Source of the DNA: an uncultured Collinsella sp.
Lineage (GTDB): Bacteria; Actinomycetota; Coriobacteriia; Coriobacteriales; Coriobacteriaceae
Direction: 5' to 3'
NCBI GenBank assembly: GCA_902473205.1
Contig: CABRRA010000008.1
Location: 829 to 64,828, forward strand
DNA length: 64,000 nucleotides
The notes beneath the pieces were generated by a model. The model was not told where the DNA came from, ran no database searches, and saw only the letters and a program-made list of their open reading frames with translations. Positions 3,191-52,885 of this stretch are shown here, one piece after another; within the stretch, counting starts at the first letter, position 1, and every line of letters begins with the position of its first letter. Position numbers and translations under genes: made by a program.

Positions 3191-3501
3191 CAGCATATTG
3201 TAAAGATGAAACCATCTATGCAGAAATCGAAAAAGCGATAAGCAATATTAGAGATTTGGATTTGACTCAATTTGACCAAAATCTAAGAAATCAGCAATTG
3301 ACCGACCCGCCATTCAACTTGTCCTCATCAGATTTAGTTCGACTGCTAATTTATCTTGAAAGCAGGTTTTCTGTTTACGTTGAGTACTCGTCGATTGAAA
3401 ACCTAGGGTTCAACAGTGTTGAGGAGGTGAAGAAGGTAATAGAACAGTCAGAAATAATCGAACAATGGGAGGTAAATCATGAGAAGTATTCGTCCATTTA
3501 A
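3187..3501 (+). CDS. Acyl-carrier-protein-related small protein
   Basis: 104-aa ORF, translationally coupled to the upstream gene. FNLSSSDLVRLLIYLESRF aligns residue-for-residue with the ACP helix-II motif (LG.DSLD.VELVM.LEEEF). That alignment places Ser47 at the phosphopantetheine-Ser position. Confidence 0.6.
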   Translation: MTAYCKDETIYAEIEKAISNIRDLDLTQFDQNLRNQQLTDPPFNLSSSDLVRLLIYLESRFSVYVEYSSIENLGFNSVEEVKKVIEQSEIIEQWEVNHEKYSSI

Positions 3502-4212: not shown

Positions 4213-5817
4213 CTAGATAGTTTTTTCTGGCTCCTGAAACTGTATTACATAGTCCGAAAATTGTTCGAAACCATGTCCATGATCCGCAATGATGACGATT
4301 CGCTCTTTCATCTCCTGTGCAACAACCACCTTCAAAAAGGATATCGAAGCATTATCTAAATTGTTGCAAGGCTCATCCAAAATAACAATAGAATAACTGC
4401 TCAGAAAGGCCCTACAAAGTAATAGAGAAGCCAGTTCTCCGCCAGACAAATTGTGTCCCCTAGCTCCAATGATGGGATTTGATTCAAATAATTTATCGAG
4501 GCTAAAACCCCTCAAAAGATAGATGAGTTTTTCAGAGTCAATATCTACAAGACCATAGTAAAGAGCCTTCCTGAAAGTTCCCCCCATTATCAAATGTCTT
4601 TGCGGCATAGTTGCGCAGGGTAGCTGGATTAAAGTCGAACCATCGAAAATGACAGTAGACTCATTAACACACAGTCTGCCAGCAACTGGAGACAATAATC
4701 CATTCAATACTTCCAGAAATGAAGATTTACCACATGCATTAGGGCCGCTTACTAAAACCAGACAAGGTGCCTGTATCGTGCAATCTGGAATTGTTATCCT
4801 CTCATTAGTTTCGTTCGACGAAAACGAGAGACTGATTCCTTTCCAACTAATTCGATCAGCGTGATCGAAGCATATCAAATTAGGTTTTTCAGCTTCCAAA
4901 AGACGACGTAATTCCAAGACACGGTGCAACGATCTAAACGACGGCTGAAGCTGAGCCCAACAATTCAGAACAAGAGGAAAAGGAGAATAGCATAGAAGTA
5001 CAAGTTGATAACTCTGCACTGCAATCCCGACCGTCAGCCCGCGCTTTAACACAAGGAAAATAAGCAGCAGAACTGAAAGCAAGCCAGTAATGATGTTGCC
5101 AGCGTCAACTATTTCAGTTGCCAATCTCGCAAAGACACTCTCCTCAACTCGAGAGTTCCTGCAGGCTTTAAGCATCTTTTTATAGTGAAGTAATTCCAAG
5201 TTAATTGAACGAGAAATACGAATGTAAAGTCGACAATTTATTAGTTGGGCTAAATAAGCAGAACCCCTCGCCTGGGCCTCCAATGCCTTTTCGCTCTTAG
5301 TCGATAGCTTACTAAGAGCGAACGGATATAGAAGCGAAATAAACAATGCCGAAACACAAACAGGAATCAAAAGCAACATAGAGATATTAGATAGCGCCAC
5401 AAACGATACCAAACCCGTCACTAGGCACGGAAGAAACGCAGTTGTAAATATTCCAATCATCGGCTGTAGGTTCCCGGCCTCTTCAATGCGCGATAACAGG
5501 TAGTCACTGTCTTTTGCTAAAACTAAGGGCCGCTCTAAAGCATGGCGGGCAAGCAATCTATAGAAGCAGTTAGCACCATCGGAAGCCAATTGCTCCGCAT
5601 ATTTTGATCTGAACAGATTTGTCACCAGCTCAACTGAGAGCAATACTAGCAGGCCTAACCCAATGTATAAAACGTTACGATAATTAGAACGAAGCAGGCC
5701 ATAATCTATTATCAACGATTCAGCTTTAACAACAGACAGCTCCACCAGGGCAGATAAAATGCAGAGCGCCATCAACTTGATTACTGTCGTCTTATTTTGA
5801 ATAAAAAGCTCTGGCAT
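4213..5817 (-). CDS. ABC transporter, fused permease/ATP-binding half-transporter (exporter type), with no N-terminal C39 peptidase domain
   Basis: 534-aa ORF. The N-terminal half is hydrophobic (multiple TM segments). Motifs present: Walker A GPNACGKSS, signature LSGGE, Walker B IVILDEP, H-loop IIADHG. It is convergent with the LURP-like gene. A GAGGGGA SD and a TATAAT lie upstream on the minus strand. Confidence 0.85.
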   Translation of the reverse strand: MPELFIQNKTTVIKLMALCILSALVELSVVKAESLIIDYGLLRSNYRNVLYIGLGLLVLLSVELVTNLFRSKYAEQLASDGANCFYRLLARHALERPLVLAKDSDYLLSRIEEAGNLQPMIGIFTTAFLPCLVTGLVSFVALSNISMLLLIPVCVSALFISLLYPFALSKLSTKSEKALEAQARGSAYLAQLINCRLYIRISRSINLELLHYKKMLKACRNSRVEESVFARLATEIVDAGNIITGLLSVLLLIFLVLKRGLTVGIAVQSYQLVLLCYSPFPLVLNCWAQLQPSFRSLHRVLELRRLLEAEKPNLICFDHADRISWKGISLSFSSNETNERITIPDCTIQAPCLVLVSGPNACGKSSFLEVLNGLLSPVAGRLCVNESTVIFDGSTLIQLPCATMPQRHLIMGGTFRKALYYGLVDIDSEKLIYLLRGFSLDKLFESNPIIGARGHNLSGGELASLLLCRAFLSSYSIVILDEPCNNLDNASISFLKVVVAQEMKERIVIIADHGHGFEQFSDYVIQFQEPEKTI

Positions 5818-5996
5818 ATGTCCATCCCCTCAACTAATAATTATAGCTAGAAAGATGACATTTTTATTCTATAGCCTCAAGCAGCACGCTTTGCTGACGT
5901 CAAATCTTGTCATTACAAACATGCACCTTAGCGCTTAAGACTCCAAAAATGGGGCGGCCGAGATGGCCGTCCCCTCCCCATTATCGATCTATCTGA

Positions 5997-6015
5997 CAAA
6001 GGGACGGCCCCTTTG
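5997..6015 (-). terminator. Hairpin just downstream of the YoaK-family gene
   Basis: CAAAGGG-acggc-CCCTTTG is a perfect 7-bp stem, 11 nt past the stop at 6026. No U-tract follows, so function is uncertain. Confidence 0.3.
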
Positions 6016-7010: not shown

Positions 7011-9152
7011 GTGGCAAAAAAGCCTCAGCACGCTCAGAACAACCAGCGCAGTCAGCAGGGCAAACAGGGCCAGCAGCAAAAGCGCGGCGGCAAGGCGCAG
7101 GGTGGGCACACCACGCATACCCCAGCAGCGCCCACGCGCCCCTGGCGTCCGGGCCGCGATAAGTTCCTCCCCGTCAGCCGCGCCGACATGGATGCGCGCG
7201 GCTGGGACCAGTGCGACTTTGTCTACATCTGCGGCGACGCCTACGTGGACCACCCTAGCTTTGGTATGGCCATCATCAGCCGCGTCCTCGACGCGCACGG
7301 CTACAAGGTGGGCATCATCTGCCAGCCCGACTGGACCGACCCCGCCAGCATCAGCGTGCTCGGTGAGCCGCGCCTGGGCTTTCTCGTCAGCGCCGGTAAC
7401 ATGGACTCCATGGTCAACCACTATTCGGTGACCAAGCACCGCCGCCACACCGATGCCTATACCCCCGGTGGCGAGGAGGGGCGCCGTCCCAACCGAGCCG
7501 TCACGGTCTACGGCAACCTTATCCGCCAGACGTTCAAGGATGCCCCCATCATCATCGGCGGCATCGAGGCGAGCCTACGCCGTCTGGCCCACTACGACTA
7601 CTGGCAGGACAAGCTCAAGCGCTCGGTACTGCTCGACTCGGGCGCCGACATCCTCATCTACGGCATGGGCGAGCACGCGATTGTCGAGATTGCCGACGCG
7701 CTCGACGCGGGGCTGCCCGTCGATCAGATCACCTATATCAACGGCACCGTCTACCGCACGGGTTCGCTCGACGAGGTCTACGACTACGACCTGCTGCCCA
7801 GCTGGGACGATCTTACCGCCGACAAGCTCAACTACGCACGCAGCTTCAATGTGCAACAGCAGAATATGGACCCCATCACCGGACATCGCCTGGTAGAGCC
7901 CTACCCCAACAGCGTCTATGTGGTGCAGAACCCGCCATCGGCGACGCTCACCACCGATGAGATGGACGAGGTTGCCGAACTCCCCTACGCACGTGACTGG
8001 CATCCCGACTACGACGCGGCGGGCGGCGTGCCGGCCTTTGCCGAGATCAAGTTTTCCATTAGCTCCAACCGCGGCTGTTTTGGCGAGTGCTCGTTTTGCG
8101 CCCTCACCTTCCACCAGGGCCGCGTACTGCAGATGCGCAGCCACGACTCGATCATGCGCGAGGCCGAGCTGCTCACGCGCGATCCCGAGTTTAAGGGTTA
8201 CATCAACGACGTGGGCGGACCGACGGCAAACTTTAGCCGCCCGGCCTGCGACAAGCAGCTCAAGCACGGCGTGTGCAAGAACAAACGCTGCCTGTGGCCG
8301 AGCGTATGCAAGAACATGGTGGTCGACGAGAGCGGCTACACGCAGCTGTTGCGCGACCTGCGCCAGCTGCCGGGCGTCAAAAAGGTCTTCGTGCGCAGCG
8401 GCATCCGCTTTGACTACACCATGGCCGACGCCTCGGACGAGTTTTTGCGCGAGCTGCTGGAGCACCATGTCTCGGGCCAGCTGCGCGTAGCGCCCGAGCA
8501 CGTGAGCGACGCGGTGCTGTCCGTGATGGGCAAGCCGAGCCGCGCCGTCTACGATGCATTCTGCCGTAAATTTGAACGCTTGAATCGCGAGTATGGACTC
8601 AAGCAGTATGTGGTGCCGTACCTCATCTCGAGCCACCCGGGCTCAACCATGAAGGAAGCCGTGGACCTTGCCGAGGCCGTGCGCGACATGGGCTACATGC
8701 CCGAGCAAGTGCAGGACTTCTACCCCACGCCGTCCACCATGTCGACGTGCATGTACTACACCGGCGTGGACCCGCGCACCATGGAGCCGATCTATGTGGC
8801 GCGCGACCCGCACGAGAAGGCCATGCAGCGCGCGCTCATCCAATATCGCAAGCCCGAGAACTACAAGCTCGTACGCGAGGCGCTGGAAAAGGCCGGGCGT
8901 CGTGACCTGATCGGCTACACCAAGCATTGTCTGATTCGCCCCGTGCCGCCACGCCCGGGCGAGACATCTGCTGGCGGCGGACACGGCGCTGGCAAGAAAG
9001 GCGGCAAGCCGCACGGTGGCGCTGGCGGTGCCGGCAAGGGGCCAAAGGGCAGCAAGGGGCACAGCGGCATGTCGCGCGCACAGAACACTGCCGGTCGCAA
9101 TCGCGCGGCCCAGGGACGGCAGGGCGCCAACGGAGGCGGGCGTCGCAATTAG
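7011..9152 (+). CDS. ygiQ: YgiQ-family (UPF0313) radical SAM protein with a Gly/Lys-rich C-terminal tail
   Basis: The track ORF is 6825..9152. A likely GTG start at 7011 follows GGGAGG. FLPVSRADMDARGWDQCDFVYICGDAYVDHPSFGMAIISRVLDAHGYKVGIICQPDW parallels the E. coli YgiQ N-terminus. The radical SAM cluster is SNRGCFGECSFC. Confidence 0.85.
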   Translation: MAKKPQHAQNNQRSQQGKQGQQQKRGGKAQGGHTTHTPAAPTRPWRPGRDKFLPVSRADMDARGWDQCDFVYICGDAYVDHPSFGMAIISRVLDAHGYKVGIICQPDWTDPASISVLGEPRLGFLVSAGNMDSMVNHYSVTKHRRHTDAYTPGGEEGRRPNRAVTVYGNLIRQTFKDAPIIIGGIEASLRRLAHYDYWQDKLKRSVLLDSGADILIYGMGEHAIVEIADALDAGLPVDQITYINGTVYRTGSLDEVYDYDLLPSWDDLTADKLNYARSFNVQQQNMDPITGHRLVEPYPNSVYVVQNPPSATLTTDEMDEVAELPYARDWHPDYDAAGGVPAFAEIKFSISSNRGCFGECSFCALTFHQGRVLQMRSHDSIMREAELLTRDPEFKGYINDVGGPTANFSRPACDKQLKHGVCKNKRCLWPSVCKNMVVDESGYTQLLRDLRQLPGVKKVFVRSGIRFDYTMADASDEFLRELLEHHVSGQLRVAPEHVSDAVLSVMGKPSRAVYDAFCRKFERLNREYGLKQYVVPYLISSHPGSTMKEAVDLAEAVRDMGYMPEQVQDFYPTPSTMSTCMYYTGVDPRTMEPIYVARDPHEKAMQRALIQYRKPENYKLVREALEKAGRRDLIGYTKHCLIRPVPPRPGETSAGGGHGAGKKGGKPHGGAGGAGKGPKGSKGHSGMSRAQNTAGRNRAAQGRQGANGGGRRN

Positions 9153-14026: not shown

Positions 14027-14164
14027 GTCTCAATCTGTAACATCTACAGGGCAAATCTTCCTCTACGTGTTACAGATCGAGACAAACGGTCGACACGGTT
14101 CACAAACGTCTCAATCTGTAACAGTTATCGAGTAAAATCGGCCCTAATTGTTATAGATCAAGAC
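14027..14164. repeat. Family A array A1: 2 units of the 80-81 bp periodic palindromic repeat
   Basis: 16-nt arms GTCTCAATCTGTAACA (14027-14042), TGTTACAGATCGAGAC (14068-14083), GTCTCAATCTGTAACA (14108-14123) and TGTTATAGATCAAGAC (14149-14164). Loops are 25 nt and the linker is 24 nt. Confidence 0.9.
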
Positions 14165-14343
14165 AGAGGGGGATTTCCGTTCAGTCCAAACCAAATCTCT
14201 CGCTCTTCCTGCAATTTCGAACATGTGGCCTATAATGTTGCTTTGGTTACGCTATATATTGCGCAGCCATTTAATACGTCGCCCACCGGGAGCCATTAAT
14301 TCCTATCGCCATATTGGCTAGGAAGCAATCAAAGGAGGTATCC

Positions 14344-15306
14344 GTGGCAGCAGAGACGCCTTGCTCGGTCCTCTATAACGATATTCGCTCGTTCGGCGGT
14401 CTTAAACATCTCGAGATCGCCCGAATGCTCATCAATGGAAACTCTTATCTCGGCAGTACCCTGCTCGAGAAATGCTCTTCCAACCGCTCGTATCTCACCC
14501 GTTACATCGTCCATCGCAAGCCTGACCAGTGCGCGCCCGCCATCTACAGCGACTTTACCGTCACCACGCTCAACCTTTCCGCGGCAATCTGCAGCAAGCT
14601 CGGCGGCGGCGAGTCCGCCTATCGGGCAATCGCCGAGCACTATCGCGGTCCGGCCGCCAACGAAATGATGTCGGCTCTCGCCAGCTACAAGCTGGACAGC
14701 CGCCTATATGCAAATACCCTCAATCGCATCGATAACTTTGACGGCAATGCCGTGCGCGAAAAAAGCACGCTCTTCTTGATGCTCTTTGTGGCAACGGGGG
14801 CGCTCGCCGATCCCGTTCAGGGCGTGGCCACCGTCGAGCGCTTTTGCGACAGCAAGACGGGCGGGCACTTTGGCACCACCGAAACTACCGTCGGACGTGG
14901 CTTTATGAGCAGCCTGGAGCAGCCGCGCACCGTCGCCCCCAACCTCGGTCTGCTCAGAACCCATGCCGACAACTGCGCCGACATGCAAATCCATCCCCTC
15001 ACACGCGATCCGCGCGGCACCGTAATTGGTTCTTTGCCCAAAACCTCGCCCAGCATCACCGATGTGGGCGCCGACGCATCGCGCGAGCATCTTCGCATTT
15101 GGCTTGAGGGTGAGCACTGGTACGCCCAGGGCCTTGGATCGACCAACGGCACGGTACTCGAATCGGGTGCAGGCGACGGCGATATTGTGATTGAGCCGCC
15201 GCGCGACCAACGCGAGCCCGGCAAGATCTATCCCCCAGTGAAAATCGAAAACAGCGACAGGCTCCATCTGGGTCTCTACACGACATTCCTTGTCATTGTG
15301 GACTAG
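14344..15306 (+). CDS. FHA-domain protein: an N-terminal region of unknown function followed by a C-terminal FHA domain
   Basis: The track ORF is 14314..15306. A likely GTG start at 14344 sits 6 nt after AAAGGAGG. The C-terminal stretch VIGSLP...DASREHLRIWLEGEHWYAQGLGSTNGTVLES...VKIENSDRLHLGLYTTFLV carries the FHA hallmarks (G-x, S-x-x-H, N-G-T). Confidence 0.75.
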   Translation: MAAETPCSVLYNDIRSFGGLKHLEIARMLINGNSYLGSTLLEKCSSNRSYLTRYIVHRKPDQCAPAIYSDFTVTTLNLSAAICSKLGGGESAYRAIAEHYRGPAANEMMSALASYKLDSRLYANTLNRIDNFDGNAVREKSTLFLMLFVATGALADPVQGVATVERFCDSKTGGHFGTTETTVGRGFMSSLEQPRTVAPNLGLLRTHADNCADMQIHPLTRDPRGTVIGSLPKTSPSITDVGADASREHLRIWLEGEHWYAQGLGSTNGTVLESGAGDGDIVIEPPRDQREPGKIYPPVKIENSDRLHLGLYTTFLVIVD

Positions 15307-15477
15307 CGCGGACGGCGATCGGAAGACGGTCGCCGTCCGTCTTTCGTCTTCTACCTTCTGCGTCGTAAACGACAATGCTCAGCGGTATACGTGGGCAGTG
15401 CGGCTATCATGGTACTTTACCGATATCCGCACTGCTCGCGTATACGTGCGGCAACCCATGCCAGACAAAGGAACGCC

Positions 15478-17562
15478 ATGGATACTACCGATAGCGCCTA
15501 TGGCGACAAACTCATCCGTCTCGATACGTTCGATACCGCCGTGGCGGTCGACCCCAGCGCCGAGGACGACGCCAAACGTCGGTTTATGACGCTTATTCTC
15601 CAGACGGCCCACCGCAACAACGGCAACATCGGGCACGTGCTGCGCGCGACCAACACGAGCGGCGAGGTCTTTGCCGTCAAGCTACTCAAGGACAACGCTA
15701 TCCTTTCCGGCCAAGCCCCCGACCGCTCCGCCGAGCAATCGGCCGCTCACTTGGCCAACACCGCCGCGCTATTCGAGGAGTACCGTCATCTTTGTACCGT
15801 CTCGCACCTGCGCGGATTTCCGCGCGTCTATGGCTACGGATCGTGCGAGGATGACCCGCTCATCCTCATGGAGTGGGTCGAGGGCACCTCGCTCAAGCAG
15901 GCGCTGCCCCTGCTTCCGCACGACGCCTCGGGCGGGCTGACCACCCAGATGGTCGCCGCCGTCGGAAACGCCGTGCTTCGTGCGCTCTTGATGACCCAAG
16001 GCCTCGTGAACCCGGTCATCCATCGCGATCTGTCGCCCGCCAATATTATGTTCCGCACCACCAGCCGAACGCTCGAGCAGCAGATTGCCGATTGCTCCTT
16101 TGACCCCTGCCTCATCGACATGGGCTCCGCGACCATGGCTCTCGGCGACGACACGATCACCCGGTGCGCCGACATCTGGCGCTTTGCCACGCCCGCATAC
16201 GCCGCGCCCGAGATGCTCACGCAGGATATCGAAGGCATCGCGGCCCTTCGCCGTTCGCCGGCAATCGACGTCTATGCGCTTTCGAGCATTCTGTACCAGC
16301 TCTACAGCGGTCGCAAACCGTTTGACTTTGAGTCGACGGACGCCGCTGCAACCGGCTCGTTCTATCTCGTAAAGACCAAGACCAAGCCGGCACCGCTCGA
16401 GCCGCGCTGCGAGGGCGATGAGGCGCTCGTCCAGATCATCATGAAGGGTCTCTCAGTCGAGCAGTGCGATCGTCCCACCGAGCAGCAGATGCTCGAGGTG
16501 CTCTCGGCATACCTCACCGACGCCGAATCCGAAGGCCGCGAAGGTGCAGGAGACGAGGCCGCAATTGATATCGATTCTGGCACGCACCTTAAGGTCGACG
16601 TCGCCGGCGAGCGCGCACGAGAGATCCTGAATCAGGCCCGCCACGATGCCATGACCCGCCGCCGCTTTATTATCGGCGGCGCTATCGCAGCCGTTGCGGG
16701 GCTCAGCGTTATCGGGGCGGCAACCCATGGCTTTGGCATCCCCGACTACCTCGACGGCATCCGCGGTTCACTTGACGACTACACCTGGGATCAGCTGCAG
16801 GAGATTTCGCTCAAGATTAAGGCCGCCGAGACCCGTAGCGAGGCACGCGAGATTGCCAAGCGCTATCACCTGCTCGATGCCGATGGGCATATCCCCTATC
16901 CGTGTACCAAGCGTGTCACGCTCACCAACGGGCTGCAGGTTGGCGCGCAGCTTGTGGGCATCCGCCACGATGAGCTTCTGGACGGGACGGGCAAGGCCGG
17001 ACTGACGTTTATGTTCGACGCGGGTATTGCCGAGCGCAACGCTGCGGCTGAACCGCCGAGCGCCGGCTGGGCAGATTGCGAGCTGCGGAAATGGCTCAAC
17101 GGCGACGGCCTTAAGCTGCTGCCCAACGAGTTGCGCGCACTCATCAAATCTGTCAAAAAGATCTCGAATAACGCTGGCGCCGCCAACAGTGCATCGTGTC
17201 TGAGCGAGTTGCCCGCAACCCTTTGGCTGCCCGCCATGGTCGAGCTGTGCGGTACGCAACCGCCCGATTCGTTTGCCAAGGACTATCACTACCTGGCAGA
17301 CATCTACAACGGCGAGGGCAAGGGGTACCAACTCTTCCGCGAGCTCAAGGTGAGCCCGTATTCCACGAACGAGACGATGGTCCGCCAGTGGAAGGGCAAG
17401 GACACCTGCTGGTGGGAGCGCACGGTGAGCCCCGACTCATCGGAGACCGAAGGCACGCTCTATTTGAATCGCGTTGGACACGACGGCGACGTCTTTACGT
17501 ACGCAACGCCTGCGGACAAGCCAAACAAACGAACCTGTGTGATCCCCGGATTCTGTATCTAG
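15478..17562 (+). CDS. Transmembrane Ser/Thr protein kinase (Hanks type) with a C-terminal extracytoplasmic domain resembling DUF6273
   Basis: The track ORF is 15391..17562. I place the start at ATG 15478, after AAAGGAA. Kinase motifs: VFAVKLL (VAIK Lys), IHRDLSPANIMF (HRD), LIDMGSA (DFG-like) and YAAPEM (APE). One TM segment, TRRRFIIGGAIAAVAGLSVIGAA, follows. The roughly 270-aa C-terminal domain contains GWADCELRKWLNGDG and TCWWERTVSP motifs. Confidence 0.85.
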   Translation: MDTTDSAYGDKLIRLDTFDTAVAVDPSAEDDAKRRFMTLILQTAHRNNGNIGHVLRATNTSGEVFAVKLLKDNAILSGQAPDRSAEQSAAHLANTAALFEEYRHLCTVSHLRGFPRVYGYGSCEDDPLILMEWVEGTSLKQALPLLPHDASGGLTTQMVAAVGNAVLRALLMTQGLVNPVIHRDLSPANIMFRTTSRTLEQQIADCSFDPCLIDMGSATMALGDDTITRCADIWRFATPAYAAPEMLTQDIEGIAALRRSPAIDVYALSSILYQLYSGRKPFDFESTDAAATGSFYLVKTKTKPAPLEPRCEGDEALVQIIMKGLSVEQCDRPTEQQMLEVLSAYLTDAESEGREGAGDEAAIDIDSGTHLKVDVAGERAREILNQARHDAMTRRRFIIGGAIAAVAGLSVIGAATHGFGIPDYLDGIRGSLDDYTWDQLQEISLKIKAAETRSEAREIAKRYHLLDADGHIPYPCTKRVTLTNGLQVGAQLVGIRHDELLDGTGKAGLTFMFDAGIAERNAAAEPPSAGWADCELRKWLNGDGLKLLPNELRALIKSVKKISNNAGAANSASCLSELPATLWLPAMVELCGTQPPDSFAKDYHYLADIYNGEGKGYQLFRELKVSPYSTNETMVRQWKGKDTCWWERTVSPDSSETEGTLYLNRVGHDGDVFTYATPADKPNKRTCVIPGFCI

Positions 17563-17604
17563 AGAGCGGGCGTCTTGCCGTGACGGGACCCCTCCCCGGC
17601 AATT

Positions 17605-17902
17605 GTCTCGATCTGTAACACTAGCTCGGCAGATACAGGTCTAGATGTTACAGAACGAGACAAACCCCAACCCCGCGAGACAACATCTCAATCTGTAACA
17701 ACTAGGACCCAAATATCGGTCTTGCTGTTACAGATCGAGATGTTCAGGTTACCCTCGAATGGTTTGTCTCGATCTGTAACATCTAGCAGGCAAAACAGTC
17801 CCCAGATGTTACAGATTGAGACGTTAAGTTGTGGCTCGATGAAATATCTAGATCTGTAACAGTTACTCGACAAAAACGGGTCTAGTTGTTACAGATTGAG
17901 AC
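17605..17902. repeat. Family A array A2: 4 units of the 80-81 bp periodic palindromic repeat
   Basis: Arms start at 17605, 17646, 17685, 17726, 17766, 17807, 17846 and 17887, alternating in orientation. Same-orientation spacing is 80, 81, 80 bp. Confidence 0.9.
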
Positions 17903-23403: not shown

Positions 23404-23541
23404 GTCTCGATCTGTAACAGGTACAGGGTTATTGGGCCCCTTGATGTTACAGATCGAGACATTCGGTCGACGTTTCACCGGCTTGTCTCGATCTGTAACA
23501 ATTACGAGCTCAAACGACCTCTAAACGTTACAGATCGAGAC
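23404..23541. repeat. Family A array A3: 2 units
   Basis: Arms at 23404-23419, 23445-23460, 23485-23500 and 23526-23541. Period 81 bp. Confidence 0.9.
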
Positions 23542-23549
23542 GAAACCTC

Positions 23550-24620
23550 TCAGCGCCCATACCACTGGCGTCTCCACTCCTCAGCCAAATCGGCCCGCTG
23601 CGAAATACCCGCCAACCTCATTTTCTCGACCAGCTTCCCCGGGTCTTTGAGTTCGTTAAACGTAAACCGAAGCACCTTGTGCCCGAGCATTGTCAGATGA
23701 GATTCCCGCTGGCGCTCTGCCACGAACGGGTCGACCGACTCCCGACCCTCGCCGTTCTGCAAGGCATACTTCCCCTTTCCGTCGAGCTCGCCGATGACAC
23801 ATGTCCCGTCCTCGAGCCTCCAGAAATAATCGACCCGAAACACCTGGCTCAAATCGAGCGGATCGCGAAACTCCACCTGCAACTCCGGAACCGGAAAGCC
23901 GTATGCAATAAAGAACGCCCGAAAGCGAGACTCGCCGCCGTTCTCGGACAGCCCGTCCGCATGCGACGCAATCACCTGAGCTCTGCGATACCCTCGCCTG
24001 CCCTCGCAATCGACCTGGAGCCGCTCGCAGAGGTCGTCGCGCGACATGCCCTTCGCCCGCAATGCAGAATCGGCGATCGCCAGACCATACGAAAACGGCG
24101 CACGCAGCAGACAATCCTCCACCGTGCGCCAAAACGGCGTCACCCGCACGCCATCGACTTGCTCAAGCACACCCGCCGTCTGCGGACGCAGCAGCCTACA
24201 CCCCATACTCAATGCCACCGAACATCCCGTTTTGACCAAGTAACGCGGCCCGAGCAGATCATTCGGCAACTCCAGACCCCACAAAAGTGCTGCGTCATAC
24301 CCCCAAAACGCCCAATCGGGATGAAACTCCGCAAGCCCCTTGATGGTCCACCGCGCCCGCTCCGGAGGCATCAACGCATCCCATTCATGCTGAAAACAGA
24401 ACAAATACGGCTCGGGCTCCGCAATATCATCGGTTCCCACATGACGCCGCAGCCACATGAGTTCGGCATTGTCGTGTGTCACAAGCAGCACGCCTTGTTC
24501 AGCCGCCTCCGTGAGCCTGGCAAGCATCCTATTCCGCGCCAAGGTGTTACGTGTTGCATGCTTGTGTTTAAAAACGGTATTAGACACTTCCATCACCACC
24601 ACATCGGAGAAATGGGCCAT
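23550..24620 (-). CDS. Restriction-endonuclease-like (DUF559 / Vsr-like) domain protein
   Basis: The track ORF is 23550..24686. Its first 22 codons are encoded by array A4, so I start at ATG 24620. The C-terminal stretch SENGGESRFRAFFIAYGFPVPELQVEF...FRVDYFW...VIGELDGKGKY matches the E-S...G-(L/F)-P-x-P-x-x-Q...R-x-D...E-x-D-G pattern common in actinobacterial DUF559-type proteins. Confidence 0.6.
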   Translation of the reverse strand: MAHFSDVVVMEVSNTVFKHKHATRNTLARNRMLARLTEAAEQGVLLVTHDNAELMWLRRHVGTDDIAEPEPYLFCFQHEWDALMPPERARWTIKGLAEFHPDWAFWGYDAALLWGLELPNDLLGPRYLVKTGCSVALSMGCRLLRPQTAGVLEQVDGVRVTPFWRTVEDCLLRAPFSYGLAIADSALRAKGMSRDDLCERLQVDCEGRRGYRRAQVIASHADGLSENGGESRFRAFFIAYGFPVPELQVEFRDPLDLSQVFRVDYFWRLEDGTCVIGELDGKGKYALQNGEGRESVDPFVAERQRESHLTMLGHKVLRFTFNELKDPGKLVEKMRLAGISQRADLAEEWRRQWYGR

Positions 24621-24646
24621 CGTCGCTGTTGCCGCCGCCGACAAGC

Positions 24647-24784
24647 GCCTCGACCTGTAACAGTTACGGGCACAAGCAGCCGCCAAACGTTACAGATCGA
24701 GACGTTCGCGCAGCATTGCACCTCTTTGTCTCGATCTGTAACAGGAAGACCGGTTTTTTGTCCCTAAACGTTACAGATCGAGAC
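24647..24784. repeat. Family A array A4: 2 units, with a degenerate first arm
   Basis: Arms at 24647-24662 (GCCTCGACCTGTAACA), 24688-24703, 24728-24743 and 24769-24784. Period 81 bp. Confidence 0.85.
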
Positions 24785-32281: not shown

Positions 32282-32498
32282 ATCTCAATCTGTAACAGAA
32301 AGACCCAATTTCGACGACTTACTGTTACAGATCGAGATGTTTTCGAGAGACGGTTCCGAATGTCTCAATCTGCAACACGAAGGGCCGGTTTTGGCGGTCA
32401 GCTGTTACAGATCGAGATTTTCCATAGGACCATTTCTTCCTGTCTTGATCTGTAACACCTAGACCCAATTTCCATCCCTAGTTGTTACAGATCAAGAC
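32282..32498. repeat. Family A array A5: 3 units
   Basis: Arms at 32282, 32323, 32362, 32403, 32442 and 32483. Periods 80 and 80 bp. Confidence 0.9.
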
Positions 32499-32618
32499 AT
32501 TTCGGCAGCCCCCTTCCTCATCCTATTCAAATACAGCTATTTCGTTAGTCTTGGTTAACTTCGAGCCTAAAACGGGTATCCTTTGCGGCGTCAAGCAAAC
32601 GGCACGCAGGAGCGCACC

Positions 32619-33875
32619 ATGATCAACCATCTCAAACATCACTTTGGCTCCCCGCGCACCGGTGGCCACGGAGGACTCGACATCGCACGGCATATCGGCC
32701 CCGGACTGCTCGTGACCGTCGGCTTTATCGACCCGGGCAATTGGGCCTCCAATATGGCCGCCGGCTCGCAGTTTGGCTACGCGCTGCTGTGGATCGTCAC
32801 GCTGTCCACGATCATGCTCATCGTGCTACAGCACAACGCGGCGCACTTGGGCATCGCCACGGGCATGTGTCTCGCCGAGGCCACGACGCGCCACCTGCCC
32901 CGCCTCGTCGGGCGTGCGATACTCGGCAGCGCGTATCTAGCCACGGTCGCCACCGCCATGGCCGAAGTCCTGGGCGGTGCGATCGCGCTTCAAATGCTCT
33001 TTGGCCTGCCCGTACGCGCCGGCTGCATCATCGTGGCGGCGGTATCGATTGCCATGCTCATGACAAGCTCCTACAAACGCGCCGAGCGCTGGATCATCGC
33101 CTTCGTAGGCGTGGTAGGACTTTCGTTTTTGGCCGAGCTTGCACTAGTCAAGGTCGAATGGCCGCAAGCCGCCGCAAGCTGGATCACACCCAGTATGCCC
33201 ACCGGCTCGGCCGCGATTATCGTAAGTGTCCTAGGCGCGGTCGTTATGCCCCACAACCTCTTCCTACACTCCGAGGTCATCCAATCCATGCACTTCGAAG
33301 GCCAAGGCGAGCGGGTTATCGAAGAACGCCTGCGCTACGAACTCTTCGACACGCTCTTTTCGATGGGCGTGGGCTGGGCAATCAACTCGGCCATGGTCAT
33401 CCTGGCCGCAACGACCTTCTTTGCGCACGGCATGGTCGTAGACGACCTCGCCGTCGCAGCGGCCACGCTCTCCCCCATTCTGGGCCCGGCAAGCTCGATT
33501 ATCTTTGCGGTGGCACTGCTATTTGCGGGCATATCGAGTAGTGTGACGGCGGGCATGGCGGCGGGCACCATCACCGCAGGCATGTTCGACGAGGAATACG
33601 ACATCCACGACCGACACTCCTCGATCGGGGTGACGGCCTGTTTCGTCGGCGCAGTGACGGCGTGCCTGGTCGTCCCGAATCCTTTCGAGGGTCTCATTTG
33701 GAGTCGGGCGCTGCTGTCGCTTCAGCTGCCGATTACGGTCTTTGTGCTCATACGACTCACCAGTTCGCCCCGCGTCATGGGCAAATACGCCAACTCGCGC
33801 CCGCTCAACACGCTGCTTGTAGGGATCGGTGTCGTCGTAACGGCGCTCGACGCCGTGCTGCTAACGGGGATGTGA
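32619..33875 (+). CDS. mntH: Nramp-family divalent metal (Mn2+/Fe2+) transporter
   Basis: The track ORF is 32583..33875. I place the start at ATG 32619, after AGGAG. It has GPGLLVTVGFIDPGNWASNMAAGSQFGYALLW (the DPGN motif) and a multi-TM body. Confidence 0.9.
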   Translation: MINHLKHHFGSPRTGGHGGLDIARHIGPGLLVTVGFIDPGNWASNMAAGSQFGYALLWIVTLSTIMLIVLQHNAAHLGIATGMCLAEATTRHLPRLVGRAILGSAYLATVATAMAEVLGGAIALQMLFGLPVRAGCIIVAAVSIAMLMTSSYKRAERWIIAFVGVVGLSFLAELALVKVEWPQAAASWITPSMPTGSAAIIVSVLGAVVMPHNLFLHSEVIQSMHFEGQGERVIEERLRYELFDTLFSMGVGWAINSAMVILAATTFFAHGMVVDDLAVAAATLSPILGPASSIIFAVALLFAGISSSVTAGMAAGTITAGMFDEEYDIHDRHSSIGVTACFVGAVTACLVVPNPFEGLIWSRALLSLQLPITVFVLIRLTSSPRVMGKYANSRPLNTLLVGIGVVVTALDAVLLTGM

Positions 33876-33902
33876 TCGAACGGAGCACCTACCCAGGCAA
33901 AC

Positions 33903-34119
33903 GTCTCGATCTGTAACATCTAGGCCCGCTTTTGATGTCTAGATGTTACAGATCGAGATCATTCCGAGGGACAGCTCCGTTTGTCTCAATCTGTAACACG
34001 TAGGCCCCGTTTTCGCTGCTAGATGTTACAGATTGAGATCTTCTGCCGGACGGTTTTGGTTTGTCTTGATATGTAACAAGTGGGCCCAATTTCCACTTCT
34101 AGATGTTACAGATCGAGAC
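33903..34119. repeat. Family A array A6: 3 units
   Basis: Arms at 33903, 33944, 33983, 34024, 34063 and 34104. Periods 80 and 80 bp. Confidence 0.9.
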
Positions 34120-36682: not shown

Positions 36683-36759
36683 TGGTAGCCCGTACCAGAT
36701 TCGAACTGGTGATCTCCGCCTTGAGAGGGCGGCGTCCTAAACCGCTAGACGAACGGGCC
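36683..36759 (-). tRNA. tRNA-Glu (anticodon CTC), with encoded CCA
   Basis: The reverse complement is GGCCCGTTCGTCTAGCGGTTTAGGACGCCGCCCTCTCAAGGCGGAGATCACCAGTTCGAATCTGGTACGGGCTACCA. Anticodon stem CCGCC/GGCGG with loop CTCTCAA, T-arm CCAG-TTCGAAT-CTGG, and 7-bp acceptor pairing. Confidence 0.9.
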
Positions 36760-36776
36760 ATATGTAGCAAATGCAA

Positions 36777-36850
36777 TGGCTGGGATGGAGGGAGTCGAAC
36801 CCCCATTGACGGAACCAGAATCCGCTGTCCTGCCATTAGACGACATCCCA
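36777..36850 (-). tRNA. tRNA-Gln (anticodon CTG), with encoded CCA
   Basis: The reverse complement is TGGGATGTCGTCTAATGGCAGGACAGCGGATTCTGGTTCCGTCAATGGGGGTTCGACTCCCTCCATCCCAGCCA. Anticodon loop TTCTGGT, a GGTTCGA T-loop, and acceptor pairing TGGGATG/CATCCCA. Confidence 0.9.
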
Positions 36851-42245: not shown

Positions 42246-43452
42246 AGTTGCCGTAACCTCCCCTCTCCTGGTCGCGGATTACGTGGCCGCCCTCGAGGGC
42301 GATCACGCGACGGTGCATGCTATCGACCATCTCGCGGTCGTGCGTGGCGACGATCACGGTGGTGCCGGTACGGTTAATGCGCTCGAGCAGCTTCATAATG
42401 CCCAGCGAAATCGCGGGGTCGAGGTTGCCCGTGGGCTCGTCGCAGATAAGCAGCGGCGGACGGTTGACCATAGCGCGGGCAACGGCGACACGCTGCTGCT
42501 CGCCACCGGACAGCTGATCGGGCAGAGAGTCCATCTGATCGGCCAGACCGACCAGGCGAAGCACCTCGGGCACCTGGCTGCGAATGACGCCCTTGGGCTT
42601 GCCGATGCACTGCAGGGCAAACGCCACGTTTTCGTAGGCGGTCTTCTGCGGCAGGAGCTTAAAGTCCTGGAACACGGCACCGATCTGGCGACGCAAGAAC
42701 GGAACTTTGCGGTTCTTGATCTTCATGAGGTCCTGGCCGGCGACCAAAATGCGGCCGCTCGTCGGCTTGACGTCGCGGTTGAGCGTCGAAAGCAGCGTGG
42801 TCTTACCCGAGCCGGAGTGACCGACCAGGAAGACAAACTCACCAGGATAGATCTCGATGTTGATGTCGTCGAGCGCGGGCTTGTTGGGCTGTGTCGGGTA
42901 GATTTTGGTGACGTGCTCCATGAGGATGACGGGCTCGACACCGGCCTGCTTGGCCATCTTCTTGCGGCTGGCCTGCGGATCGATGGGCGCAAACACCGAC
43001 GTAAAGTCGGGATTGTTGAGCGCATTGTCGAGGCTTGCGACCTCGGCGGCCTGATCGCTCTCGACTACGGGAGCCGCGGGCTGCGTAGGATCGGGAATAC
43101 CGGCAAAAAGACCGGACTGCGCAGGCTGTGGCGCCGGAGTCGCAGGAGCCATGGGATCGGGAATACCGGCCATGACAGGCTGCGGCGCGACAGCGTCCGC
43201 CTGGGGCTGATCCACGCGAGCGGTCACCTTCTGCACGGGCTCAAAACCCGCGGCCTCGGAAAGCTCGACATCATTGGTGGGATTGTAGGCAAAGGGATCT
43301 GATGCCGGCTGTGCCTGATCTGCCGGCTGTGCGGGGATCGGGCTAAACAGCTGATCCTCTGAATCCGGGGTGGCGAAACGAGTGCCCGCGGCGCCTGGCT
43401 GCGTCTTGGGGGCGTCATCGCCCGCACCGGAGGTACGGAAGTGGTTACCCAC
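42232..43452 (-). CDS. ftsE: Cell division ATP-binding protein FtsE with a Pro/Ala/Gln-rich N-terminal extension of about 175 aa
   Basis: 406-aa ORF with a GTG start at 43452 after GGAG. Motifs: Walker A GHSGSGKTT, LSGGEQQRVAVARA, Walker B LLICDEPTGNLD. The N-terminal part is low complexity (PA.P repeats). Confidence 0.88.
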   Translation of the reverse strand: MGNHFRTSGAGDDAPKTQPGAAGTRFATPDSEDQLFSPIPAQPADQAQPASDPFAYNPTNDVELSEAAGFEPVQKVTARVDQPQADAVAPQPVMAGIPDPMAPATPAPQPAQSGLFAGIPDPTQPAAPVVESDQAAEVASLDNALNNPDFTSVFAPIDPQASRKKMAKQAGVEPVILMEHVTKIYPTQPNKPALDDINIEIYPGEFVFLVGHSGSGKTTLLSTLNRDVKPTSGRILVAGQDLMKIKNRKVPFLRRQIGAVFQDFKLLPQKTAYENVAFALQCIGKPKGVIRSQVPEVLRLVGLADQMDSLPDQLSGGEQQRVAVARAMVNRPPLLICDEPTGNLDPAISLGIMKLLERINRTGTTVIVATHDREMVDSMHRRVIALEGGHVIRDQERGGYGNYGTN

Positions 43453-43561
43453 TGGTGCTCCTTATCGTCGTACGTTTAAACTACATGAGCGCTTCGTATT
43501 TTAGCAGCATTAGCTTCGCTGCACATAAGAAGCATGGCGGGGTTTTGGTCCCACCGGCCGC

Positions 43562-52559: not shown

Positions 52560-52885
52560 GGTAGGACTCCTTATTGGTCAGGCGCTGGTTACCGATCAGC
52601 GCATAAGGCGTCTTGGTTTCCGACCAAGACAACAAACTTGGCTATGGTACCACGGCGTCGAGCGTCCCACAAAAGGTTCACGGTCTTTGCACTGTGCATC
52701 GCGCCCAAGACACAGCAGACGACACGACGAATCGCGGCAAACGGGCGCCTTTGCCCCTTCTCCCATGTTGCAGACGTGTAACGCCGCAGCAAGGGTGCCC
52801 CTTTTGGCGCCAGACAGGTACAATGATGAACACTGTACCGTAGCGGAGCGCCCCCGCGCGCCGCAACCACGCGAAAGGGTTTCCC

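Follow-up and report, generated by a model that had tools for sequence, protein, structure and literature searches.

A lineage-specific family of phased, inverted 16-bp repeats in intergenic DNA of the Collinsella aerofaciens clade: arms and arm spacing under purifying selection at putative protein-binding sites

Six short arrays of a repeated 16-mer lie between the genes of the window, by which we mean the whole 64-kb stretch of DNA that was analysed. The window contains 32 matches to GTCTCGATCTGTAACA at three or fewer mismatches, and six loci account for all of them; the chance expectation for the 16-mer is 0.31 matches, with a maximum of 2 (100 dinucleotide-preserving shuffles). The 32 arms pair into 16 units, each made of an arm, 25 nt and an inverted arm, and these are distributed over the six arrays as follows, no strand being assigned to any unit.

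14027..14083, no strand, array 1 unit 1, between a DEAD-box helicase gene (-) and an FHA gene (+)
14108..14164, no strand, array 1 unit 2, with 2 mismatches in the right arm
17605..17661, no strand, array 2 unit 1, between a Ser/Thr kinase-DUF6273 gene (+) and a copA-like P-type ATPase gene (+)
17685..17741, no strand, array 2 unit 2, found by pattern and HMM
17766..17822, no strand, array 2 unit 3, found by pattern and HMM
17846..17902, no strand, array 2 unit 4, found by pattern and HMM
23404..23460, no strand, array 3 unit 1, between an amidohydrolase gene (-) and the 3' end of a hypothetical, weakly DUF559-like gene (-)
23485..23541, no strand, array 3 unit 2, found by pattern and HMM
24647..24703, no strand, array 4 unit 1, directly upstream of the DUF559-like gene
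24728..24784, no strand, array 4 unit 2, found by pattern and HMM
32282..32338, no strand, array 5 unit 1, between the divergent genes gltB (glutamate synthase, -) and Nramp (+)
32362..32418, no strand, array 5 unit 2, found by pattern and HMM
32442..32498, no strand, array 5 unit 3, found by pattern and HMM
33903..33959, no strand, array 6 unit 1, between the convergent Nramp (+) and flavin reductase (-) genes
33983..34039, no strand, array 6 unit 2, found by pattern and HMM
34063..34119, no strand, array 6 unit 3, found by pattern and HMM

The forward arm is followed by the reverse arm at an offset of 41 bp throughout the window, which gives the loop of 25 nt, and the reverse arm is followed by the next forward arm at 39-40 bp, which gives a linker of 23-24 nt. 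Arms of the same orientation are spaced, from array 1 to array 6, by 81; 80, 81, 80; 81; 81; 80, 80; and 80, 80 bp, exactly the spacings that the initial annotation had claimed, all of them reproduced by the pattern search. Its count of 16 units at six loci, with 16-nt arms, 25-nt loops and 23-24-nt linkers, is likewise borne out by pattern search and HMMs together, since a unit HMM and a single-arm HMM recover 16 units and 32 arms in the 64 kb with zero degenerate extras. All arrays open with GTCTC and close with GAGAC, so the 57-bp arm-loop-arm palindrome is the indivisible unit and the linker is a spacer between units. Because the period is sometimes 80 and sometimes 81 bp, no reading frame can be conserved along the arrays.

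All six arrays are intergenic by gene calls and by the RefSeq annotation of the orthologous region, in agreement with the earlier view that they are non-coding and that the open reading frames running through them are artefacts. Array 4 starts 21 bp upstream of the start codon of the DUF559-like gene (as annotated in its ortholog), and array 6 starts 28 bp past a stop codon; judged by this proximity to genes, some arrays, arrays 4 and 6 for example, are almost certainly transcribed. The gene bracketed by arrays 3 and 4 has a sub-threshold DUF559 match and no match in the PDB. Additionally, Rfam places an L31-Coriobacteria leader in the window, consistent with a Collinsella origin.

Representative genomes of 185,579 species were scanned with the pattern ATCTGTAACA-N24-26-TGTTACAGAT, and at least 120 stretches matched. 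Nearly all of the matches listed are titled Collinsella, namely C. aerofaciens and many uncultured gut Collinsella species; about 12 of those listed carry the generic title 'bacterium' and one is titled Acutalibacteraceae. The gap is 25 nt in every match listed, though the pattern allowed 24 to 26. The family is present in at least about 100 species-level genomes of the Collinsella aerofaciens clade, and its mosaic repeats, dispersed through intergenic DNA, are specific to that lineage. Distant relatives (Nramp 81-85% identical) carry no arm even at four or fewer mismatches, so no diverged arm variant is recoverable; two of them retain gltB upstream of Nramp. One distant relative has unrelated long hairpins at both of the corresponding intergenic positions.

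The window and 124 of the loci listed form a comparative set of 946 kb with 819 arms. The spacing from forward to reverse arm is 41 bp in 378 of its 381 units. From reverse to forward arm the distance is 39 bp (n=146), 40 bp (n=94) or 38 bp (n=7), the first two corresponding to linkers of 23 nt (n=146) and 24 nt (n=94). About 99% of the arms within the arrays of the loci listed have three or fewer mismatches. Solo arms are rare at these loci, and odd arm counts reflect a pseudo-hit in a loop or one decayed arm.

The 155 arrays of the loci listed fall into 23 clusters of orthologous sites, a few of which include two arrays lying side by side, and the number of sites estimated by a Chao-type method is about 27; each genome is estimated to have about 25-30 fixed intergenic sites. 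Arrays of the loci listed contain 1 (15 arrays), 2 (60), 3 (46), 4 (23), 5 (3) or 8 (1) units. Apart from decay, unit number alone varies between species at orthologous sites, from 1 to 8; the array upstream of copA has 1-5 units depending on the species. Decay to a single arm is seen at some sites, such as L097 and the array-6 remnant of the record OY725717. A loop differs from its ortholog at 0-3 positions and from the loops of other sites at 5-8. Given that loops are near-identical at orthologous sites and distant elsewhere, the arrays have been inherited vertically and without recent copying between sites. They are old, vertically inherited and without current transposition.

The PLSDB record OY725717 (C. 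aerofaciens, 900 kb) contains 30 units, or 60 arms, in 13 arrays, each of which is intergenic. These arrays are confined to 403-877 kb, with none in the first 400 kb and 13 in 480 kb. GC skew is monotonic along the entire record, which therefore covers a single replichore. The record is labelled a plasmid, yet it carries recA, rpoBC, dnaE and ribosomal operons.

A link to phages was considered and rejected. The IMG/VR matches fall in host DNA flanking predicted Collinsella proviruses, a prophage junction lying about 73 bp beyond one array, and a search of a phage database gave no match to the repeat. A second hairpin, CCACCACAAAGG...CCTTTGTGGTGG, was also considered as a part of the element; in the contiguous 900 kb it is a separate, terminator-like family spread genome-wide, so its enrichment near the arrays of the loci listed is a sampling artefact.

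The arm consensus is RTCTCRATCTGTAACA, and two such 16-bp arms point towards one another with exactly 25 bp between them. Information content over 360 distinct units is 1.6-2.0 bits at 13 of the 16 arm positions, the variable ones being position 1 (G or A), position 5 (C, less often A or T) and position 6 (G or A), and the two arms have mirror-image conservation profiles. Loops and linkers in the same units mostly stay below 0.5 bit. The loop has a loose consensus, nCTAGaccc-gTTTTTg-gcgcCTAGa, with a central A/T tract and CTAG-like flanks, and its well-kept positions are limited to TAG (19-21), TTT (28-30) and CTA (37-39). Linkers are close to 0 bits except for an A/T-rich trinucleotide adjoining each arm.

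Rates of change were taken from 78 orthologous array pairs of equal length, with the flanks used to set the orientation. Their pairwise divergence is lowest at the 13 conserved arm positions (0.019), rises to 0.087 at the 3 variable ones, and reaches 0.11 for loops and 0.12 for linkers; the 60-bp flanks stand at 0.18. The mean over four-fold degenerate sites in the adjoining genes is 0.144 (range 0.07-0.26). The 13 arm positions thus evolve about 7-7.5 times more slowly than four-fold sites, and loops and linkers change at near the synonymous rate, which upholds the initial proposal that the arms are under selection of their own and that the DNA between them drifts. Length is constrained as well. 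The flanks show 0.0102 gap events per bp, which predicts a length change in about 25% of loop or linker pairs, about 66 in the 275 linker pairs compared; orthologous linkers differ in length in 25 of these pairs, always as 23 versus 24 nt, and loop lengths essentially never differ between orthologs. Both the arm sequence and the arm spacing are under purifying selection, at fixed sites. Concerted evolution of the arms may contribute, though an identical stretch of 16 bp is short for gene conversion.

The arrays fold far better than shuffled sequences (z = -11.5 as RNA and -9.9 as DNA), and such strong predicted folding is a trivial consequence of inverted arms. A selected stem would be expected in the pairing itself, and at the variable positions the two sides of the stem vary independently. 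Pair (1,57) is GC in 151 units, GT in 99, AC in 66 and AT in 40, and pair (6,52) is GC in 112, AC in 85, AT in 81 and GT in 80, both as independence predicts. Mismatches of the G·T plus T·G kind (262) compare with 244 of the A·C plus C·A kind. Among 57 non-redundant units no stem pair has mutual information above the null; paired cells amount to 73.2% versus 75.0% after column shuffling, and the covariation score is 0.124, which 499 of 500 shuffles equal or exceed (0.142 after shuffling). The invariant stem pairs, 13 in number, carry no information on base pairing either way. In 74 of 131 arrays the loops do not all point the same way, some units having TTT and others AAA at the dyad. Frequent flipping of loops is not supported, 0 of 176 orthologous loop comparisons being inverted.

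The setting of the arrays shows no tie to transcripts. About 20 sites have a called gene on either side, in convergent (8), divergent (6) or tandem (6) arrangement; arrays in untranscribed convergent spacers appear as conserved as transcribed ones. A terminator-like hairpin separates gene from array in about half of the flanks that face 3' ends; the units themselves have no U-tract, and a terminator scan calls none of them. The flanking genes share no common functional theme, being varied and unrelated housekeeping genes, and neither partition genes nor any consistently recurring DNA-binding gene adjoins the arrays. Since it is sequence and not pairing that is conserved, since the two arms are equal, and since strand polarity is absent and lengths are fixed, the arrays are best read as phased double-stranded recognition sites. 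The evidence argues against a selected RNA or DNA hairpin and favours putative protein sites. The initial annotation had offered two readings of the arms, and the 16-bp hairpin stem finds no support, with no covariation in any test. Its other reading, a protein site repeated on alternating faces, keeps its first half, favoured by conserved sequence and spacing, and loses its second, because 39-41 bp is about 3.8-3.9 helical turns and puts successive arms on roughly the same face of the helix.

The arrays are also recombinationally active. Unit number changes, and pairs of arrays often bracket segments of 1-3.5 kb, which contain a DUF559-like gene, an Nramp gene, an FHA-kinase pair or a P-loop ATPase. 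At L047 a 240-bp direct duplication containing the array flanks the P-loop ATPase cassette; the empty configuration is preserved at L082.

We propose, with moderate confidence, that the arrays are phased double-stranded recognition sites for a putative DNA-binding protein. Each arm would be a sequence-specific recognition site in double-stranded DNA, and the spacings of 41 and 39-40 bp, about four turns each, would let a dimeric or oligomeric protein fill the sites in register. The resulting nucleoprotein array might be a functional analogue of protein-bound BIME/REP clusters. Unit number would shift through unequal recombination or slippage between arms of the same orientation, and exchange of that kind preserves the period automatically. 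The mean period of 80.5 bp is 7.7 turns at 10.5 bp per turn, a non-integer, so the same-face argument needs DNA that is wrapped or underwound. A hairpin or cruciform role may also be combined with sequence-specific recognition, for example by a structure-specific nuclease or a transposase that reads the stem.

A more specific proposal, which we think unlikely, is that the arrays are platforms for a putative lineage-specific protein that organises the chromosome, comparable to MatP-matS, ParB-parS, sopC or an insulator. Such a protein would read the 16-bp site at the 41 / 39-40-bp phasing, and the arrays would mark or insulate chromosomal domains. This would account for the regional restriction along one replichore (none in 400 kb, then 13 in 480 kb), for the array pairs that often bracket single accessory genes, for the position of arrays outside terminators, and for purifying selection on sequence and spacing without an RNA-type signature.

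Several other explanations have to be weighed against protein sites. The family could be a relic, or a domesticated form, of a non-autonomous mobile element of the MITE or REPIN kind, whose 57-bp unit is bounded by 16-bp terminal inverted repeats (TIRs); it would have spread in the ancestor of the clade by a transposase acting in trans, and that enzyme, possibly still encoded, would keep the arms conserved. We consider this account doubtful, although much in the layout suits it: the TIR-like geometry is perfect, units are always complete and solo arms rare, the copies are dispersed through intergenic DNA, the bracketed genes often look accessory, the L047 duplication with its empty L082 configuration being one case, and REP clusters of tandemly reiterated dimers are known (PMC3733652). 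One remnant, that of array 6 in OY725717, is even adjoined by an IS200/IS605 element. Its tnpA was considered as a RAYT/REPtron and rejected, the element being an ordinary two-copy IS with unrelated end hairpins and a TnpA 82% identical to streptococcal copies. Across about 100 species of the loci listed there is no gain or loss of a site; cleanly empty versus occupied sites are absent, unit number alone changes, and decay to a single arm is all that is seen. Loops are site-specific, and no recent copies are common to two sites. No direct repeat of at least 2 bp exists in 87 of 110 distinct flank pairs, hence no consistent target-site duplication (TSD). No transposase flanked by arms was found in the window, the 946 kb of loci and the 900-kb record (about 1.9 Mb), and no RAYT (a Y1 HUH transposase) accompanies the repeats in the same 1.9 Mb, about 60% of a genome lying outside it; that of the IS200 element is the sole Y1 transposase there. 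The initial annotation had named, as the finding that would overturn it, that the motif is the terminal inverted repeat of a known IS or MITE with a defined transposase, and no cognate transposase was found. Selfish spread also fails to account for the 7-fold slower arms and for the constraint on linker length.

It is improbable that the arrays act as functional RNA or single-stranded DNA hairpins with a stem of about 16-22 bp, serving as terminators, 3'-end protection or RNase III sites. REP and Correia elements have been shown to act as terminators, 3'-end protectors or RNase III sites, the predicted folding is very stable, many arrays lie directly downstream of genes or between cistrons, and CTAG pairs together with flanking A/T pairs could often lengthen the stem. 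Against this stand all the covariation tests, A·C mismatches as common as G·U, and an apical loop that would be UUU or AAA within one array; a hairpin has no need of an exact 25-nt loop or a 23-24-nt linker, and structure alone would not hold 13 of 16 positions invariant. Furthermore, 6 of the roughly 20 sites are divergent promoter regions, many arrays lie beyond terminator-like hairpins, and U-tract, terminator call and Rfam match are all missing. We give little credence to a neutral minisatellite, that is, functionless tandem repeats kept regular through the mechanics of unequal crossing-over alone. Copy number does vary freely at the same site, as upstream of copA, and some sites have decayed to a single arm without obvious consequence (L097, the OY725717 remnant), but arms that evolve about 7.5 times more slowly than four-fold sites, next to intervening DNA near that rate, indels depleted relative to the flanks, and about 99% of arms with at most three mismatches speak against it. 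There is next to no chance that the arrays are CRISPR-like or otherwise acquire spacers. They share with CRISPR short conserved repeats and variable segments of constant length; however, the repeats alternate in orientation, the loops and linkers have a common loose consensus that is inherited across species, no flank contains cas genes, and no Rfam CRISPR repeat model matches. Repeat orientation and the orthologous conservation of the supposed spacers rule such an array out.

Rfam gives no match to the family at gathering scores, and up to E = 5 there are only spurious matches to miRNA hairpins, far below thresholds. A full-text literature search with the 16-mer returned no paper, and one for Collinsella and repeats returned nothing relevant. 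Descriptions of Collinsella repeats were not found in this search, and a catalogue of structured RNAs of the human microbiome lists Collinsella motifs without sequences for comparison. The earlier statement that the family could not be recognised from the literature is in keeping with this result: it is in no Rfam model, and its 16-mer is in no paper by full-text search.

The family matters for several reasons. Few actinobacteria are more abundant in the human gut than Collinsella aerofaciens, and its roughly 100 close species allow selection on sequence and spacing to be separated from selection on pairing, a separation that REP-like elements, to our knowledge, rarely permit. Should there be a cognate protein, the arrays are a ready-made and highly specific 16-bp bait for it, and they would represent a new architectural or insulating system in Coriobacteriia. 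With their variable unit number, the roughly 25-30 loci could serve to type Collinsella strains in metagenomes by VNTR. On the practical side, the arrays mislead ORF callers and are likely to trouble assemblers.

Among known systems, BIME/REP clusters are bound by gyrase, IHF and Pol I. They are built, as PMC2817692 and PMC3733652 describe them, of repeats at regular intervals that alternate in orientation and are joined by two linkers in turn; this layout is textbook, so the initial description of the arrays as an undescribed repeat architecture is not supported. Like BIME-2/REP clusters, the Collinsella arrays are extragenic, alternate in orientation, have two linkers of fixed length, are reiterated to a variable extent and have a lineage-specific sequence, and same-locus copy number differs between strains. 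A REP is a 20-40-nt imperfect palindrome with a stem-loop of its own, whereas the Collinsella 16-mer is not self-complementary and the whole 57-bp unit is palindromic; arm positions 1-7 and the adjacent loop have no mutual information in 57 non-redundant units. REPs also carry a GTAG or CGTC tag at one end (PMC3733652). In the Collinsella units, the sequence at positions 18-21 is nTAG and 26% of units have G at 18, which is not a GTAG tag, and a CGTC tag at positions 0-3 is possible in at most 29%, position 0 being C in 29%. REPs number in the hundreds (more than 100 per genome), as opposed to about 30 units per 900 kb. Unlike REP/BIME elements, the Collinsella arrays have no RAYT in the 1.9 Mb and occur in divergent promoter regions as well. 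Their host is an actinobacterium, and the word 'Actinobacteria' is absent from the main text of the REP survey (PMC3733652).

REPINs of Pseudomonas resemble the family in having two inverted repeats with a short spacer, rare singlets, tandem clusters and long vertical inheritance; they are replicating sequence populations with a cognate single-copy RAYT (PMC3116915, PMC3337134). The Collinsella units differ from them in lacking covariation, site turnover and a RAYT in the examined DNA. A study of REPINs in Pseudomonas reportedly saw an excess of compensated (symmetric) variants. The likeness to MIRU-type VNTRs of mycobacteria, which also belong to Actinomycetota, lies in tens of fixed intergenic loci with tandem units of 40-100 bp and polymorphic number, and the MIRU-VNTR layout likewise weakens the claim of a new architecture. 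MIRUs are said, after Supply et al. 1997, to be direct repeats oriented with the operon, whose small ORFs couple translation. The Collinsella unit, unlike them, is inverted and without polarity, and with an 80/81 period no reading frame is kept.

Correia elements (CREE) of Neisseria are 100-155 bp long with a TA duplication, occur in hundreds of copies with insertion polymorphism, are not known to form phased tandem arrays, and have an A/T-rich centre that is an IHF site. The Collinsella units are similar to these and other TIR-type MITEs in being small and intergenic, with conserved inverted-repeat ends, an A/T-rich centre and the possibility of a long hairpin, and differ in having no TSD, no insertion polymorphism and no IS with the same TIRs. 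In sopC of F, 43-bp units, each with an inverted-repeat site for SopB, form a single plasmid locus by the partition genes. Tandem units, an inverted-repeat protein site in each and a fixed phase are common to sopC-type centromere arrays and to the family described here, but the 25-30 Collinsella arrays are dispersed along the chromosome without adjoining partition genes. Because membership fails for each of these systems and neither an Rfam model nor a paper of the library searched contains it, the family is apparently undescribed; the layout is a known one, and the sequence family with several of its properties is apparently new.

Gene segments of 1-3.5 kb are often bracketed by paired arrays of the inverted-repeat units, both within the window and at L047, one of the loci used for comparison. 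The bracketed segments contain the following:

window 14027-17902, an FHA and Ser/Thr kinase pair
window 23404-24784, a protein of 356 aa whose C-terminus resembles DUF559/Vsr at a sub-threshold score
window 32282-34119, an Nramp gene
L047 2359-3917, a P-loop ATPase

The ATPase cassette of L047 is flanked by a 240-bp direct duplication, which is made up of an array together with a terminator hairpin plus 55 bp from the adjoining gene, and a second compared locus, L082, presents the empty configuration relative to this cassette. In NZ_OY725717.1, three paralogous lacG / PTS / LacI loci are found inside 10 kb (751406-761359), each bearing a two-unit array at the equivalent position. Segmental duplications of the genes may have carried the arrays with them.

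The record NZ_OY725717.1 (899,693 bp) is named "plasmid 6" in PLSDB. Its genes include recA, ftsK, dnaE, rpoBC and rho, the operons for ribosomal proteins and numerous tRNA synthetase genes, and the GC skew runs monotonically along the sequence. NZ_OY725717.1 is a chromosome segment, and the plasmid label is therefore an assembly or annotation artefact. Downstream of its Nramp gene, an IS200/IS605 element (422752-423495, equivalent to 42752-43495 of locus L149) directly adjoins the decayed remnant of array 6. The tnpA of this element encodes 152 aa and matches Pfam Y1_Tnp at 7e-40, and an identical second copy adjoins rpsJ at 533435-533893.

The more distant relative L154 is devoid of the arm family and bears unrelated long perfect hairpins in its intergenic DNA, at 3194-3283 (36-nt arms, 18-nt loop) and 7335-7403 (25-nt arms, 19-nt loop). 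These are located beside gltB and directly downstream of Nramp, the genes adjoined by arrays 5 and 6 in the window. L039 (CAVCBD010000014.1) is titled "Acutalibacteraceae bacterium" but has two arrays whose orthologous site is in Collinsella, and it is probably a mis-binned Collinsella contig.

The first 6000 nt of the window have a GC content of 0.42-0.45, versus about 0.6 elsewhere, and also code for hypothetical proteins. This region has the look of a RiPP/bacteriocin-type cluster gained by horizontal transfer. Features of the window include:

726-2171, a radical-SAM protein
4213-5817, minus strand, an ABC-transporter ATPase
36686-36850 and 52567-52602, two tRNA genes (minus strand) and an L31-Coriobacteria ribosomal-protein leader match

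The leader match, upstream of a small ORF on the minus strand, is marginally above the gathering score (35.1 bits against 33).

A further conserved hairpin family, aaaaCCACCACAAAGG-(9 nt)-CCTTTGTGGTGGtttt, is distinct from the arrays and has no specific linkage to them, with about 20 copies per 900 kb and none in the window. Copies and interrupting elements include:

L043 4340-4370 and 4610-4650, hairpin copies
L124 about 5975-6005, hairpin copy
NZ_OY725717.1 152579-152611, 237195-237227 and 250208-250240, example copies
OY725717 238104-239222, IS1249 splitting one copy
OY725717 850104-851473, IS3 splitting another

Since two OY725717 copies are interrupted in this way, insertion sequences seem to target the hairpin. 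Its loop is found in both orientations, and the hairpin looks like a bidirectional intrinsic terminator.
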